Shown: one piece after another, positions 962-5,243 of the stretch | Position numbering within the stretch: position 1 is the first letter of the stretch | How the letters are laid out: each line of letters begins with the position of its first letter | IMG/VR virus record: IMGVR_UViG_2547132252_000009 | Length of the DNA: 7,819 bases | Source: a virus | Taxonomy: Duplodnaviria > Heunggongvirae > Uroviricota > Caudoviricetes | Reading direction: 5' to 3' (one strand) | Position numbers and translations under genes: made by a program | Notes under the pieces: model-generated | The model's database searches: none | Told to the model about the DNA's origin: nothing | What the model saw: only the letters and a program-made list of their open reading frames with translations

Positions 962-1708
962 TTACTTCACAACCCTCATATTGCTGACATTTGGACGCCA
1001 GCTATCCCAGTTAAACGTCACCCATCGACCACCGTTCATGGTCATGCGGTCCATAATCCTCTCACCAAGAAGTGTACTCATTGCGGCATGATTCAGGTTT
1101 GTTAACATCCCGACACTGCACAGTGATGCTGTCCGGCGATCAATTATCTGGTGTAATACCACCTGCTCGTTTTTCGTCTCCCGCTGAACGCCTATTTCAT
1201 CCAGGACCAGCAAATCAACACTGCAAAGCTCCTGTAAAAATTTTTCCCCGGATTTGCCGTTGTCGTAGCTGTCATGCAACACGCTCATGACATCAGACAC
1301 GGTGACGATAATCACGCTGCGCCCCTTCGCCATCAGCCGGTTACCCATCGCCGCTGCAAGGTGATTTTTCCCGGTGCCGGTTTTACCGCTGAACACAAAA
1401 TTCGTGCACCCGGTCATCAGTTCGTCAGCTATGGATTTGGCCTGGCTCAGCGCGTATTTTAGCCCGTCGTTCTGCACCTGATAATTCGCAAACGAGCATT
1501 TGCTGTGCAGAGGCTGGATGCCCGAACGATTCAGGATTTTTTCCACCCGCAACTGGTGATTCTGGCGGTTAATCTCCTCGCTGCGTTTTCGTCCTTCAGC
1601 AAGTTGCCATTCCCGCCACTCCTCCACCGTCCGGTACGGTGGAACCGACGCCTGTGGTGCAAGTCTGCGAATACGTTCAAGAACCCCGGCTGCCGCAATG
1701 TTTTTCAT
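962..1708 (-). CDS. DnaC-like replicative helicase loader (AAA+ ATPase), prophage paralog
   Basis: 248 aa; Walker A FSGKTGTGKNHLAAAMGN, Walker B DLLVLDEIG, C-terminal VTFNWDSWR; collinear similarity to E. coli DnaC as I recall it (NRSGI.PLH..CSF.NY, GMLTN.N...M..LLGER.MDRM). Confidence 0.9.
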   Translation of the reverse strand: MKNIAAAGVLERIRRLAPQASVPPYRTVEEWREWQLAEGRKRSEEINRQNHQLRVEKILNRSGIQPLHSKCSFANYQVQNDGLKYALSQAKSIADELMTGCTNFVFSGKTGTGKNHLAAAMGNRLMAKGRSVIIVTVSDVMSVLHDSYDNGKSGEKFLQELCSVDLLVLDEIGVQRETKNEQVVLHQIIDRRTASLCSVGMLTNLNHAAMSTLLGERIMDRMTMNGGRWVTFNWDSWRPNVSNMRVVK

Positions 1709-1714
1709 GCCACA

Positions 1715-2164
1715 TCACCCCCTGAATCCCGGCGGAATTTCGGTATCCGGTTCAGAAATATGATTCACACAACGCTGGTTGTTCGTGCCGCTTACCGGGA
1801 GCAACCAGGGGTTTTCAAAATTCCGGTCCGGCCCAAAAAACGTCGTCGCTCGCTGAACAAATTCCGTTCCCGCTTTCCCGGTCGCCGCCAGGTATCTCGC
1901 GTAACGCCTCACACCATCCAGCATGGTCTCTGGTGGCACCCCCTCGCGCAATCTGGCCTTCCAGGCACTGAAAGCGGATTTCTTCGGGTTTGCCCCAGCA
2001 CGCAACGGGTATTCCCGCCAGACCTGTTCGAACACATCCGGATAATCCACTCGTCCCACAGACTGCCCGGTGCTTTCCGGGACTACCCGATCGGCTTCCC
2101 GCTGAATGGCGGAATCGGCTTCAGGCTGCTGCAGTTGGTGTGATTGCTCCGACCCTGCGGTCAT
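1715..2164 (-). CDS. DnaT-like (primosomal protein I C-terminal domain-like) protein
   Basis: C-terminus VNHISEPDTEIPPGFRG matches the DnaT C-terminus (VNTVSEPDSQIPPGFRG) as I recall it. ATG at 2164-2162 overlaps the upstream TGA (TGATG). Lies immediately upstream of the dnaC-like gene (6-bp gap), mirroring the host dnaT-dnaC operon. The ORF track starts at GTG 2176; the same frame is open upstream to 2341. Confidence 0.7.
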   Translation of the reverse strand: MTAGSEQSHQLQQPEADSAIQREADRVVPESTGQSVGRVDYPDVFEQVWREYPLRAGANPKKSAFSAWKARLREGVPPETMLDGVRRYARYLAATGKAGTEFVQRATTFFGPDRNFENPWLLPVSGTNNQRCVNHISEPDTEIPPGFRG

Positions 2165-2916
2165 CACCTGCTGCACAGCGCCCGAATCGGCTTCCGGTGT
2201 CGTGCCTGCTGGCTGACCAGGATTGACGGTCTGAACATCCCCTGCCTGGTTCGTGGTGTTTTTTTGCCATGAACCATAGTGTTTTTGTCCTGTTCCTGTT
2301 CTTTCTCCTGCTCCTGTTCCTGTTCTTGGCTTCGAAGCCCCTTAAAAGCCCCTTCGAAGCCCCTTACCGAATTTCGGCTATTATTCCGCCTCACATCCAG
2401 ATGGAAATCCGTTTTATATCTGTCGTAAAACACTGACAGAAAAGCGTTTTCAGGTAATGATGCATACTCATTCCTGACACCTGCACAACGGTTATCGCCA
2501 GGCTTCAACGTTTCCCCAACCTGCCAGGCTGCCATTTCATGGACCCAGACCATCTCTGCATCATGGTCATAGCTACAAAAACCAGCTTCAACAGCCCTTT
2601 TAAGCCCCTTTGAAGCCCCTTCCAGACCAAGCCCGGTTTCATGAGCAAGGTATAAAACTGGCAGGTAATACAAACCCAGCATATTTGCGTGAGGGGATGT
2701 CATCAGGTAAAAAGCAACAACTTGCGCTTCTGCACCCGCCTTTCTAAGTTCTCTCCCCGTTTCTCCCAGCCAGAATCGCGGAGAAACTTTTGCGTAATCA
2801 CGCATGGCTACCTCATCTGGTGCCGAACCTTCCTCCGGATATAATCTGTGGTTCCCAATCGACAGAACCAGAGGAGGTTCGACATGTATTTTTTGAAAAG
2901 CCTTTATCAGGCTCAT
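2164..2916 (-). CDS. Putative phage replication initiator (O-like replisome organizer), N-terminal domain plus (EQ)n linker; possibly the 5' part of a frameshifted initiator-DnaT fusion
   Basis: 250-aa ORF with internal repeats GLEGASKGLKRA / GFEGAFKGLRS and an EQEQEQEKEQEQ linker. After the A7 run the tail is arginine-rich and junk-like. Alternative start ATG at 2805 with GAGG 5 nt upstream (MRDYAKV...); ATG at 2916 has no clear SD. Confidence 0.6.
   Translation of the reverse strand: MSLIKAFQKIHVEPPLVLSIGNHRLYPEEGSAPDEVAMRDYAKVSPRFWLGETGRELRKAGAEAQVVAFYLMTSPHANMLGLYYLPVLYLAHETGLGLEGASKGLKRAVEAGFCSYDHDAEMVWVHEMAAWQVGETLKPGDNRCAGVRNEYASLPENAFLSVFYDRYKTDFHLDVRRNNSRNSVRGFEGAFKGLRSQEQEQEQEKEQEQDKNTMVHGKKTPRTRQGMFRPSILVSQQARHRKPIRALCSR
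2285..2366. repeat. Imperfect hexamer repeat (TCCTGT)n at 2285-2326 followed by three tandem 11-bp iteron-like units T(C/A)(G/A)AAGCCCCT at 2332-2364
   Basis: Read directly: tcctgt tcctgt tctttc tcctgc tcctgt tcctgt, then tcgaagcccct taaaagcccct tcgaagcccct, at helical-turn spacing. Confidence 0.7.
2593..2623. repeat. Second cluster of three tandem 10-11 bp AGCCCCTT-type repeats
   Basis: agccctttta agcccctttga agccccttcc; same core as the 2332-2364 cluster, about 260 bp away, inside the initiator ORF. Confidence 0.6.
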
Positions 2917-3339
2917 GTATTAAATGTTGCAGCAACAAACCGCTGGTGTAACAGCCCCGAAATGCTCCCGGATTACAGAGCCTGGCTGCGCGCCGAAACA
3001 TACCTTCGTCTCGACATATTGATTAGCGAACTTCAAAAAGAGACTGCATCCATTCATAACCTTCAGGGTATCGACGCTGTTCGCATTCTGGTATCGCGCC
3101 ATAGTGCTCTCTCAATAATTGAAGTGCGTCATCTCTCTTTTTCTGAACTGATTTTCTTGCTTCAACCAGCTCTGGAATCAGCGAATATCCCGCCGGAAGT
3201 GATCCAATACCCACCTCATGTTGACGAGCAGTTACAAGATGTGCCATACAACCAGCGTGCTGGATTGACTCCCTGCTCAGAGGCTGAATGGGATCACTCT
3301 CTGCTGAAGAAATACCAAGATTTGTATAATCCTCAATAA
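2884..3339 (+). CDS. Alternative hypothetical ORF (151 aa) antisense to 3023..3532
   Basis: ATG 2884 preceded by perfect AGGAGG at 2872-2877 with 6-nt spacing. Protein is Leu/Ser/Ile-rich, as antisense ORFs often are; orientation is opposite to the surrounding operon. Confidence 0.25.
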   Translation: MYFLKSLYQAHVLNVAATNRWCNSPEMLPDYRAWLRAETYLRLDILISELQKETASIHNLQGIDAVRILVSRHSALSIIEVRHLSFSELIFLLQPALESANIPPEVIQYPPHVDEQLQDVPYNQRAGLTPCSEAEWDHSLLKKYQDLYNPQ

Positions 3340-3532
3340 GCCCGGCACACGCTTCTGCATCAGCCAGCTTTATTCTGGTTTCCTTGCGCTGTTCTCTGGC
3401 TGACAAACGCCAGAGCAGCGCATTAGCTTTATGTATCAACCACTCTGCCAGCTCCACATCAGATAAACCGCCACGCCAGATGTGCGGACTGTTTTCGTAA
3501 ACGCTCAGTGTCAATTTTTTGTCATTACTCAT
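3023..3532 (-). CDS. Hypothetical protein (169 aa) between the ydaT-like gene and the replication initiator
   Basis: ORF in operon orientation with ydaS/ydaT/initiator; balanced charged/hydrophobic composition. Start taken as ATG 3532 (MSNDKKLTLSV...), weak SD; the track's GTG start at 3583 would overlap ydaT. Competes with the antisense plus-strand ORF 2884..3339. Confidence 0.5.
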   Translation of the reverse strand: MSNDKKLTLSVYENSPHIWRGGLSDVELAEWLIHKANALLWRLSAREQRKETRIKLADAEACAGLIEDYTNLGISSAESDPIQPLSRESIQHAGCMAHLVTARQHEVGIGSLPAGYSLIPELVEARKSVQKKRDDALQLLREHYGAIPECEQRRYPEGYEWMQSLFEVR

Positions 3533-3545
3533 ATTTATTACCCAA

Positions 3546-3971
3546 TTAATGCACAGCCAGAGTGTTTCCTGCCGGGCCACCACGATTCATCTGATCGAAC
3601 AGAACGATCGCTGATGCAACGAAATCATCAATATCTTTCACCAGCCGTTCCTTCGTCTCTACCAACTCCCGAAAATAAGCGGAACTGTGGCTGCGCATTC
3701 GGGCCACCAGCGGAGGCGGCATCGCTTTTTCGATCGCTGGTAACAACGCCTGAATTTTTTTAACCGCATCAGGAGTGTCTTTCTCCACCCAGCGGAAAAT
3801 TTTCTGAGTATTGCGAGCCATGGCTTCCGGATGGCTGTCGTCATACAGTTCCGGGAACGTCATTCCCAGCTCGAAATACGCTTTGGTAATTTTCGCAGCC
3901 GGTACTTTTTCGCCGTCCGGATGCGCCCAGGCATTCATCGCCATGCGGATGTGTTCATGCTTGATTTTCAT
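3546..3971 (-). CDS. ydaT: YdaT-like protein (CII-like regulator / putative toxin family)
   Basis: 141 aa starting MKIKHEHIR..., recalled as the Rac YdaT N-terminus; sits directly downstream of the Cro-like gene with a 17-bp overlap; GGAG 9 nt upstream of the ATG. Confidence 0.75.
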   Translation of the reverse strand: MKIKHEHIRMAMNAWAHPDGEKVPAAKITKAYFELGMTFPELYDDSHPEAMARNTQKIFRWVEKDTPDAVKKIQALLPAIEKAMPPPLVARMRSHSSAYFRELVETKERLVKDIDDFVASAIVLFDQMNRGGPAGNTLAVH

Positions 3972-4227
3972 GAATCAACTCCGGCGCATTTGATGTGTTA
4001 ACCTTACATCCAACAGGTAAACCGTCGGTTGGGTTAGGATAAATATCTGGGCGGATTTCATGCGGGGTAACTTCCCACTTCATTAGTTGGCATAACGGAA
4101 TTACCTGCTTTGGGGGAACGCCAAAGCTAAACCATTGCCAAACAGTCTGTTGAGCGACCCCCATATAACGACCTATTTCAGCCTGAGTGTATTTCTGCCT
4201 AATTTTTTCGCGAGTGCTATCTAGCAT
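3955..4227 (-). CDS. ydaS: Cro-like HTH regulator (YdaS-like)
   Basis: 90 aa; HTH motif AEIGRYMGVAQQTVWQW; ATG 4227 preceded by GGAGG (5-nt spacer); divergent from the repressor gene across the operator region. Confidence 0.8.
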   Translation of the reverse strand: MLDSTREKIRQKYTQAEIGRYMGVAQQTVWQWFSFGVPPKQVIPLCQLMKWEVTPHEIRPDIYPNPTDGLPVGCKVNTSNAPELIHENQA

Positions 4228-4260
4228 TTTGCCCTCCTCTAAAAACTATAAGCAAAGCCT

Positions 4261-4299
4261 ACAATAAAAAACTGTATGCAATCAACAGTTTTTTATTGT
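4261..4299. promoter_or_regulatory. Operator: perfect 15-bp inverted repeat ACAATAAAAAACTGT / ACAGTTTTTTATTGT with 9-bp spacer, in the divergent ydaS / repressor intergenic region
   Basis: 4261-4275 is the exact reverse complement of 4285-4299. A further ACAG/CTGT mini-palindrome lies at 4306-4328. Candidate -10 TATAGT for ydaS (minus strand, 4243-4248) and TAAAAT (4324-4329) for the repressor gene. Confidence 0.7.
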
Positions 4300-4335
4300 G
4301 ATGCTTTTAACAGTATTTACCTGTAAAATTGAATA

Positions 4336-4737
4336 ATGATGAGCGCCCTAGAAGTATCTATGTACAGAATCAGCAAGCTTCTTCAGGAAACTGGATGGAG
4401 CCAGGCTGAGCTTGCCCGTAGAATTGGTGTGACACAACAAACTGTTCAACAATGGGTCAGCGGTAAGGCTACACCTAAAGCCTCAAGTTTGGATAAACTG
4501 GTTGAGGTTTCAGGGCATCCATTGCATTGGTTTTTATTGCCTCCTGAAGAGTGTGAGCAAATTTTCACCCCTGACACGATGAAAATTGGTCCTCGCCAAC
4601 GCGAACTGCTCCAAGCTTTTAGTGCGTTTCCTGAGGAAGACCAAGAAAAAATGCTTCAAGAAATCAAAGACAAGAAAAAATCAATGGAAGAAACCATTGC
4701 TAGGTGGCTGGCGGCACAAAAAAGCCGCCGGGCGTGA
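4336..4737 (+). CDS. paaR2: CI-like XRE-family repressor, PaaR2-like
   Basis: 133 aa; HTH SQAELARRIGVTQQTVQQWVSG; first gene of a three-gene operon with a small antitoxin and a ParE toxin; divergent from the Cro-like gene. Confidence 0.8.
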   Translation: MMSALEVSMYRISKLLQETGWSQAELARRIGVTQQTVQQWVSGKATPKASSLDKLVEVSGHPLHWFLLPPEECEQIFTPDTMKIGPRQRELLQAFSAFPEEDQEKMLQEIKDKKKSMEETIARWLAAQKSRRA

Positions 4738-4764
4738 CCACAGTACAAGAAGAGGAGTTATGCC

Positions 4765-4956
4765 ATGGGTACAGCCCTTTCTCCGATAGTTTCAGAATTC
4801 GAAACTACCGAACAAGAAAACAGTTACAACGAATGGTTGCGCACTAAAGTAACGTCAAGCCTTGCAGACACTCGCCCCGCAATTCCACATGACGAGGTAA
4901 TGGCTGAAATGGAAAATCTTATTGCTCAAATTGCTGTAACTAACAAGAGCGAGTAA
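4765..4956 (+). CDS. paaA2: Small acidic antitoxin, PaaA2-like
   Basis: 63 aa, acidic; GAGGAG 6 nt upstream of ATG 4765; its stop overlaps the toxin start (TAATG). Confidence 0.8.
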   Translation: MGTALSPIVSEFETTEQENSYNEWLRTKVTSSLADTRPAIPHDEVMAEMENLIAQIAVTNKSE

Positions 4957-5243
4957 TGTTACCCATTTTATGGCTACCGTCTGCTCGCGATGATTTGCGC
5001 CAGATCATAACTTACATCGCCAAGGAGAACCCACCGGCAGCACGTAGACTAAAAATACGCATTGAAACATCGGTATTACCTCTATCTGAGCATCCGTACT
5101 TATATCCACCAAGCGAACGGGTTTCTGGATTGAGAGAGATCGTGACCCACCCTAACTACATAATCCTGTACAGAGTAGCTGCTTCAAGCATTGAGATTGT
5201 AAGCGTGACACATTCTCGGCGACAATTTCCCTTCTCTATCTGA
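4956..5243 (+). CDS. parE2: ParE/RelE-superfamily toxin, ParE2-like
   Basis: 95 aa; ParE-like N-terminus MLPILWLPSARDDLRQIITYIAKENPPAARRL; translationally coupled to the upstream antitoxin. Confidence 0.85.
   Translation: MLPILWLPSARDDLRQIITYIAKENPPAARRLKIRIETSVLPLSEHPYLYPPSERVSGLREIVTHPNYIILYRVAASSIEIVSVTHSRRQFPFSI

Follow-up and report, generated by a model that had tools for sequence, protein, structure and literature searches.

We analysed a 7,819-nucleotide stretch of DNA from a virus of the Caudoviricetes (IMG/VR virus record IMGVR_UViG_2547132252_000009), called here, at its full length, the window. A replication-initiator gene on its minus strand contains two clusters of a 9-bp repeat, AAGGGGCTT on the coding strand, whose copies follow one another at 11-bp intervals. 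Iterons are double-stranded sites where an initiator protein binds, and we consider it probable that these phased 9-mers are iterons bound by the N-terminal domain (N-domain) of the encoded initiator and that, with the DNA of lower GC content around one of the clusters (cluster B), they form the origin of a lambdoid, Rac-like prophage. Comparison with homologues shows that the 9-mer is under strong selection at the DNA level independent of coding, that its sequence shifts in concert at both clusters between two subfamilies, and that the gene occupies the initiator position of replication modules. From these sequence comparisons we infer that the initiator binds the 9-mers, that DNA nearby melts and that replication starts there. 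A preliminary description of this DNA had read the repeats as iterons belonging to an origin inside the initiator gene, adding that coding constraint alone could explain them. Four lines of evidence (fixation of synonymous positions, inversion of the sites, copies in non-coding DNA and concerted change of the core) support the proposal, origin activity being its deduced part, and the same four refute the coding explanation.

Phased repeats within the initiator gene

The 9-mer AAGCCCCTT occurs in five exact copies, at 2335, 2346, 2357, 2602 and 2613, all on the plus strand, and nowhere else on either strand of the 7,819 bases. The expected number of copies is 0.10, and none of 200 dinucleotide-preserving shuffles reached five. 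Tandem Repeats Finder reported 11-bp arrays at 2335–2366 (2.9 copies) and 2595–2621 (2.5 copies) and an array of the hexamer TCCTGT at 2288–2325 (6.3 copies), and found no further repeat-rich candidate origin in the window. The features that bear directly on the repeats are as follows.

1715–2805, minus strand: replication-initiator gene, a pseudogene for a 'DNA-binding protein' in RefSeq (from the annotation of the identical region of FORC_044, and translation).
2386–2805, minus strand: coding region of the predicted N-terminal winged-helix DNA-binding domain, residues ~1–140.
2587–2628: candidate iteron cluster A, with exact AAGCCCCTT at 2602–2610 and 2613–2621 (11-bp spacing) and a degenerate copy at 2591–2599; codes residues 60–73, the predicted recognition helix.
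2335–2365: candidate iteron cluster B, with exact AAGCCCCTT at 2335, 2346 and 2357 (11-bp spacing); codes part of a disordered linker, R-G-F-E-G-A-F-K-G-L.
2326–2334: conserved junction, coding strand CGA-AGC-CAA, a partial extra iteron (AAGCC) in the homologue consensus that leads into the hexamer array.
2285–2326, minus strand: hexamer array (GAACAG)n, found by Tandem Repeats Finder, coding the (EQ)n interdomain linker, and also the mosaic junction at which C-terminal domains are exchanged.

The three 11-bp units that the preliminary description placed at 2332–2364 have exactly the sequence it gave. Its second triplet, at 2593–2623, does lie in an 11-bp array but consists of two exact copies and one degenerate copy, ACAGCCCTT, which agrees with the 9-mer at six of nine bases. 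The two clusters are ~255 bp apart. Each coding-strand unit is AAGGGGCTT plus two spacer bases, and because 11 is not a multiple of 3, successive units are read in three frames (AGG-GGC-TTC, GGG-GCT and AAG-GGG-CTT). The minus strand encodes the motif G-x-E-G-A-x-K-G-L, as had been described, in the forms G-F-E-G-A-F-K-G-L and G-L-E-G-A-S-K-G-L, for which the two clusters use different units in corresponding frames.

The similarity of the peptides encoded by the two clusters, together with the near invariance of E-G-A-S-K-G-L as protein in the winged helix, favours an explanation in which the repeats are a by-product of coding and the protein simply needs G-x-E-G-A-x-K-G-L twice. The reading of one 11-bp unit in three frames already argues against this explanation, and the homologues described below leave it scarcely credible.

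Constraint on the 9-mer across homologues

We compared 80 homologous loci from gamma- and betaproteobacteria (52–79% protein identity, locus GC 32–68%), 79 of which entered the codon and orientation counts. Counted in either orientation, the initial 700 nt of the gene (55.5 kb over all loci) contain 197 exact 9-mers, versus 14 in the 436 kb outside it; the majority of the 14 are no more than 45 nt upstream of the start codon.

In a pairwise synonymous-identity profile of 178 aligned codons, only codons 60–73 and 149–160 are outstanding; the remaining columns are below 0.8, and none besides codons 2, 21 and 34 exceeds twice its expectation. Synonymous identity in cluster A is 0.97–1.00 at codons 62, 63, 66 and 73 and 0.81 at codon 68, and in cluster B 0.91–1.00 at codons 151–153, 155, 156, 158 and 159. 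The cluster A codons are Glu62 GAA (71/71), Gly63 GGG (73/74), Ala64 GCT (60/76), Lys66 AAG (68/68), Gly67 GGG (65/75) and Leu68 CTT (70/78). Outside the motif, GGC predominates in conserved Gly columns, and conserved Gly, Leu and Ala columns are mixed, with mainly GC-rich or host-typical codons. Ser65, whose third position belongs to the 2-bp spacer, varies freely there (TCG 34, TCA 14, TCT 7, TCC 5). At the junction next to cluster B, synonymous identity is 0.96 for Arg158, and Ser159 is AGC in 74 of 74 sequences. Near-fixation of synonymous positions in loci of 32–68% GC, beside neighbouring conserved Gly, Leu and Ala columns with host-typical codons, counts against a by-product of coding, and at 52–79% identity the alignment is not dominated by near-identical sequences.

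Repeat spacing is also kept in homologues, a point on which the preliminary description had asked for a check: neighbouring copies are 11 bp apart in 71 of 75 pairs for cluster A and in 87 of 105 for cluster B. The family therefore has multiple direct repeats in phase with the DNA helix, as expected of an iteron-type origin. The helical phase between the clusters is not constant, the distances between them grouping at 254, 266 and 278 bp, in steps of 12, and we did not use it as evidence.

Orientation, non-coding copies and a second subfamily

Cluster A has the same position, with both copies in the forward orientation (F), in 62 of 79 homologues. Cluster B is reversed (R) in 49 loci (RR or RRR), forward in 6 (FF or FFF) and mixed in ~14. 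Its inversion turns EGASKGL into EAPSKPL, changing three of seven residues, a further point against coding as the cause, and keeps the exact double-stranded site. The Shiga toxin (Stx) phage POCJ13, with 80% protein identity to the window, has cluster B in the R form; in the window and in other Enterobacterales the two clusters have the same orientation.

The complementarity of cluster A (F) and cluster B (R) in most homologues raises the idea that the motif acts in mRNA, either by pairing of the clusters over ~250 nt or through G-rich units serving as internal Shine–Dalgarno-like pause sites, and a repeat search did find imperfect arms in the window. Clusters in the same orientation, as in the window and other Enterobacterales, cannot pair, however; orientations are mixed within some cluster B arrays, and the copies that precede the gene in Acinetobacter are F in one locus and R in the others. 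Only the double-stranded sequence is common to all arrangements, and an Rfam scan found nothing at the repeats, its single hit, DicF, lying elsewhere in the window. The varying combinations of orientation rule out RNA pairing between the clusters, and we regard an action in mRNA as very improbable.

Seven Acinetobacter prophage loci (L013, L019, L031, L033, L038, L041 and L060) carry two or three extra 9-mers at an 11-bp period between −40 and −1 from the ATG, in non-coding DNA that overlaps the Shine–Dalgarno sequence of the initiator gene; these are F in the one locus mentioned above and R in the others. Such copies again speak against a by-product of coding, and they suggest autoregulation in the Acinetobacter lineage. 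The main rival to an origin starts from here: the 9-mers would be bound by the initiator or another phage protein for regulation only (autorepression, a transcriptional roadblock or cluster pairing that controls copy number), and the origin would lie elsewhere. The upstream copies, at the ribosome-binding site and just before it, occupy a typical operator position; weak additional copies occur at +40 to +79 in some loci; and the AT-rich element described below is weak. Plasmid iterons commonly serve both regulation and replication, and the copies at the ribosome-binding site make regulation plausible as an additional role. As the only role it appears unlikely to us. E. coli and most other loci have no copies near a promoter, the operon starting ~1.4 kb upstream of the initiator gene, and the window contains no other repeat-rich candidate origin. 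Moreover, two intragenic clusters held at fixed positions across beta- and gammaproteobacteria and adjoining a domain linker match proven embedded origins (PMC7466680, PMC5737612, PMC5703833).

In a second subfamily the core at the two cluster positions (+175/+186 and +407 to +440) is another sequence, AAAGGGTT, which occurs in either orientation and at no other place in the loci. In its member from Klebsiella phage ST13-OXA48phi12.4, whose N-domain is 31% identical to that of the window and whose next gene is dnaC, AAAGGGTT at +175 and +186 codes E-R-V-S-K-G-F at the recognition-helix position and recurs at +407 and +418, in other frames, just before a (CAGGAA)6 array. The two clusters of this subfamily thus encode different peptides (ERVSKGF versus KGSERV or EPF) from one DNA core, which a need for a repeated peptide does not explain. 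Four of five metagenomic contigs of subfamily 2 (57–62% GC) share this layout; their cluster B may face either way, and 3.5–4.3 kb of sequence contains no other copy. In the fifth, L171 (39% GC), the core is confined to the cluster B position (+430/+440). Close relatives among viral contigs (84–99% identity) were left out as too similar to inform.

Together, enrichment, synonymous sites, orientation, non-coding copies and concerted change are all fitted only by a requirement for a double-stranded DNA sequence. The conservation of the site independent of coding and its co-variation with the DNA-binding domain are likewise what an iteron-type origin would have, and the repeats always go with the N-domain while the C-terminal domains differ. 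The comparison of cores between subfamilies is a stronger test of co-variation than one within subfamily 1, where the minor variant AAGGSCCTT in clusters A and B co-varies in a way that is suggestive only (Fisher p ~0.01, from few, phylogenetically non-independent cases).

The 85-kb mobilizable plasmid pR997 of Proteus mirabilis (NZ_KY433363.1; L087 1386–2255) encodes a distant N-domain homologue (76 residues at 34% identity), just downstream of genes for a LexA-family repressor and a small helix-turn-helix protein; this locus has no obvious iteron-like repeats.

Predicted domains and the exchange of C-terminal domains

An AlphaFold2 model of residues 1–160 (mean predicted local distance difference test score, pLDDT, 84.6) is a confidently predicted winged helix-turn-helix with helices at residues 25–36, 50–57 and 60–73, a strand at 45–47 and a hairpin at 77–88; residues 143–160 are disordered (pLDDT <50). 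According to this model, cluster A (codons 62–68) would code the N-terminal half of the predicted recognition helix and cluster B part of a flexible linker, a location that would explain why its inversion is tolerated at the protein level. The preliminary description had put the repeats at the linker between protein domains, which is right for cluster B; cluster A lies within the DNA-binding domain, on the predicted recognition helix.

Neither half of the initiator gene matches a Pfam family at E ≤ 0.01, NCBIfam gives only a sub-threshold DnaT match of the tail, and a profile search of PDB sequences with the initiator returned no match. The preliminary description had likened the arrangement to that of lambdoid O-type initiator genes; the protein is not an O-type initiator and has no Phage_rep_O domain. 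Over its full length (residues 1–363) it matches phrog_1701, 'DnaD-like helicase loader' (E = 8.9e-149), a name that is an annotation label rather than a tested function; no DnaD Pfam domain was detected.

Behind the N-domain lies the hexamer array, followed by a domain that varies from relative to relative.

1715–2140, minus strand: coding region of the C-terminal domain, ~92% identical in DNA to initiators bearing unrelated N-domains; presumed to be a partner-recruiting domain.

In nearly all homologues the codons of cluster B are succeeded by those for SQ(EQ)n, where n ranges from 3 to 17. The preliminary description had listed the hexamer array at 2285–2326 among the iteron-like repeats; the array is there, but it encodes the (EQ)n linker and its synonymous identity is at expectation (ratios ~1.0–1.3). 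This lack of synonymous constraint points to a linker kept at the protein level, or to maintenance by slippage, and not to a binding site, and we therefore ruled out the array as iterons.

Megablast searches found 7 phages and ~1,800 E. coli genomes that match the window only at 1717–2285, a segment that covers the C-terminal domain and stops at the array edge, so that the mosaic breakpoint relative to other phages lies exactly at 2285. The C-terminal domains of 76 homologues form 23 clusters unrelated by BLAST; those of some relatives are Phg_2220_C domains (the SPP1 G38P family; for example, P0079) and those of others DnaT domains. The breakpoint at the array edge, the 23 unrelated domain clusters behind it and a copy number that varies from 3 to 17, as slippage-prone microhomology would give, would suit a recombination 'linker sequence' comprising cluster B and the hexamer array and kept for the exchange of C-terminal domains between phages. 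As an account of the repeats we judge this improbable: cluster A, the 11-bp phasing, the inversions, the non-coding copies and the concerted change in subfamily 2 stay unexplained, and the array, free of synonymous constraint, is conserved as protein. For the hexamer array alone the idea may be partly true.

The last 24 residues of the initiator (window 1715–1790), with the tail NHISEPDTEIPPGFRG, resemble the C terminus of DnaT (NF002770, E = 0.0019, far below the curated cut-off), and the tail is conserved in the otherwise unrelated initiator of Klebsiella phage ST13-OXA48phi12.4; it may be a short partner-binding peptide.

Escherichia phage Tritos (L084 3100–3182) combines the C-terminal domain of the window with an unrelated N-domain. 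There, too, the domain junction carries five GTCACG repeats of its own, with a 10–11-bp period, followed by a (GATAAAGATACA)3 array. The layout of DNA-binding domain, phased repeats, simple-repeat linker and exchangeable partner domain thus recurs with different specificities, and the Tritos repeats are probably another embedded origin.

A candidate unwinding region

2380–2470, between the clusters: lowest-GC segment of the gene in the composition profile (37–40% GC), candidate DNA-unwinding region.

The AT-rich region that the preliminary description saw adjacent to the repeats is present in modest form. Besides the minimum at 2380–2470, the hexamer array and T-rich stretch (2230–2320) have 42–45% GC with a strong purine/pyrimidine skew. 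Homologue GC at +360 to +420 falls 7–9 points under the locus mean, and synonymous sites support the dip across the family, though not in E. coli itself: in 71 of 79 loci, third codon positions have a lower GC content (GC3) in codons 116–148 than elsewhere in the N-domain (mean difference −0.145), and in 65 of 78 loci GC3 is also reduced in the EQ array (mean −0.19). The dip in GC3 would fit selection for easier melting around cluster B, as an effect that is moderate and small in absolute terms.

Scans for other signals were negative. One-mismatch matches to the DnaA box number 5 in the window versus 6.3 expected, with none in the repeat region, and promoters and terminators show no excess over shuffles in 1600–4400.

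Gene neighbourhood and the state of the window copy

962–1708, minus strand: gene for a DnaC/IstB-like AAA+ ATPase, a presumed helicase loader, immediately 3' of the initiator gene (Pfam IstB_IS21 1.4e-18, Bac_DnaA 9e-08).
2259–2265: run of seven T (T7), which is T8 in other genomes (alignment with HB6 and 02E060); a frameshift just past the linker, parting the N-domain and linker from the C-terminal domain.

The window matches a Rac/Qin-like cryptic prophage of O157-type E. coli, and its positions 1700–2950 are 100% identical to strain FORC_044. The order of the early operon is a ydaS-like gene, a ydaT-like gene, an unnamed open reading frame, the initiator gene and the DnaC/IstB-like ATPase gene. 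The gene downstream of the initiator is annotated DnaC in phages POCJ13 and ST13-OXA48phi12.4, and in relatives at large the next genes are DnaC-like, DnaB-like or primase-helicase. The initiator cassette is present in ~8% of complete E. coli genomes, mostly those of Shiga-toxin-producing strains.

Elsewhere the initiator is intact (363 aa in HB6, WP_001205823; 371 aa in 02E060), whereas the shortened T run would leave the window copy to yield only the N-domain plus linker. Among 454 complete E. coli genomes covering at least 80% of a 186-base stretch around the run, FORC_044 alone has 100% identity with the window; among the matches listed, the 29 that rank next have 187 bases and 99.5% identity, consistent with T8. 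The frameshift is thus either a private mutation or a homopolymer assembly error, and the 9-mer sites of the window are undamaged despite it.

Proposed mechanism and points against it

Our preferred reading, an origin whose iterons lie in the initiator gene, would work as follows. On induction, the early right operon would be transcribed and the initiator made. Its N-domain would occupy the phased sites, which at 11 bp per site would lie nearly on one face of the helix. A nucleoprotein complex may form as initiator molecules on clusters A and B join across the 230 bp that separate them. The flanking low-GC DNA would then open, and the exchangeable C-terminal domain would recruit the DnaC-like loader of the adjacent gene and, via the loader, the host DnaB helicase. 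As a tentative extension, which we hold possible rather than probable, the recognition helix would be encoded by a site it recognises (cluster A), and the two clusters would form a looped origin in two parts, with either orientation allowed for the linker cluster. If the helix codons are the recognised site, specificity and site share the same nucleotides, and any change in specificity would have to be matched at the second cluster.

Several points weigh against an embedded origin. The initiator gene is frameshifted, so the window copy may be inactive. The AT-rich element is weak, its minimum being 37–40% GC and its low GC owing partly to amino-acid composition, and E. coli itself has no depression in GC3 (0.42 versus 0.44). 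Next to the iterons of lambda (~19 bp) or of plasmids, the 9-bp repeats are unusually short and lie close together; cluster A lies inside a folded domain rather than a linker; and the variable orientation of cluster B is unusual for origins of fixed geometry. The 9-mer sites could serve autoregulation instead of, or besides, initiation. Finally, the literature on the motif, on O157 prophage origins and on Eru typing gave no description of this origin or its repeats and no replication experiment on it, with a prior mention possible in the 2006 review by Weigel and Seitz.

Comparison with known embedded origins

Origins embedded in initiator genes are experimentally established in lambda and Stx phages (PMC7466680), SPP1 (PMC5737612) and pSK41 (PMC5703833). 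In oriλ (lambda O, and Stx phages 933W and P27) the N-terminal domain binds iterons that are located at or beside the interdomain linker and have a lower-GC flank; four to six iterons of ~19 bp in mid-gene are followed by a pronounced AT-rich tract, the C-terminal domain of O recruits a helicase-loading partner encoded by the next gene, and the N-domain and iterons form one specificity module (PMC7466680). The window is similar in its initiator gene with embedded candidate iterons, the modular layout of N-domain and C-domain and the adjacent gene for a presumed loader. It differs in lacking a Phage_rep_O domain, in having 9-bp cores at an 11-bp period in two clusters, one of them within the DNA-binding domain, in its much weaker AT-rich tract and in a partner gene that is DnaC/IstB-like and not a P-type loader.

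In oriL of SPP1, G38P binds repeated (AB) boxes in its own gene, gene 38, beside an unwinding element, and the loader and helicase are separate (PMC5737612). Like G38P, the initiator of the window has no AAA+ domain, some of its relatives carry Phg_2220_C, and PHROG labels are of the DnaD or replisome-organiser type; the window protein itself has neither Phage_rep_org_N nor Phg_2220_C, the sequence, length and bipartite layout of the repeats differ, and the hosts are proteobacterial. The RepA_N-type Rep of pSK41 binds direct repeats (Rep boxes) in mid-gene through a winged-helix N-domain, and the origin DNA encodes a dispensable linker; in this family the C-domain is host- or partner-specific, and N-domain and origin have been swapped as a ~500-bp unit (the pPR9 chimera) (PMC5703833). 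The 23 shuffled C-domain types behind the N-domain of the window family resemble this arrangement, although the window protein lacks the RepA_N domain (PF06970). By sequence the initiator falls outside the lambda O, G38P and RepA_N families, yet by analogy it would work like them. What distinguishes it from all three is 9-bp candidate iterons packed at one helical turn, a bipartite arrangement with one cluster on the codons of the predicted recognition helix, and free orientation of the linker cluster.

A further counterpart is the Eru4 replication region of Stx phages. Shigella phage 75/02 Stx and POCJ13 share the N-domain (80% identity), both repeat clusters and the DnaC-like gene, and the cassette of the window is their prophage counterpart, differing from POCJ13 in the orientation of cluster B. 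In the Eru typing paper, which gives no origin for Eru4, the proteins of this type are entered as being of unknown function, together with an AAA 'helicase' (PMC8951638).

Other features of the window

A 223-bp tandem duplication (261–672; 1.8 copies, 98% identity), not found in FORC_044, HB6 or 02E060, disrupts a DUF1627 gene, which has 771 nt in those three genomes versus a 157-aa open reading frame (467–940) in the window. The small RNA DicF lies at 6916–6967 on the plus strand (Rfam RF00039, 76.9 bits), with dicB next in the matching region of FORC_044. At 4336–5243, also on the plus strand, a three-gene toxin–antitoxin module (helix-turn-helix regulator, RelB-like antitoxin and ParE toxin) looks like paaR2-paaA2-parE2 of an O157 cryptic prophage (PMC8630535).

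Open reading frames at 2884–3339 (plus) and 3023–3583 (minus) overlap on opposite strands, and each matches a database family: the former, which is annotated, the NCBIfam 'ECs1072 family' (2e-30), and the latter, unannotated and co-oriented with the operon, phrog_8304 (6e-120). One of these two families may have been built on antisense open reading frames.

Significance

Our reading would give a function and a testable origin to a widespread family of phage initiators that has no Pfam model and whose members are 'hypothetical' or 'DNA-binding protein' in RefSeq. The family also occurs in the Eru4 type of Stx1 phages, and since replication of Stx phages drives toxin output, knowledge of the origin would make the Eru4 replication type experimentally tractable. 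In terms of modular evolution, the N-domain, the candidate iterons and the (EQ)n linker form a fixed cassette behind which C-terminal domains are swapped.

The family would also be a very clean natural case of a protein-binding DNA code laid over a protein code, its signal visible from synonymous sites alone in hosts of 32–68% GC. If cluster A does encode the helix that recognises it, such a self-encoded site would explain why the iteron is nearly frozen from Acinetobacter (~40% GC) to Burkholderiales (68% GC), and why only two discrete specificities, AAGGGGCTT and AAAGGGTT, were found.

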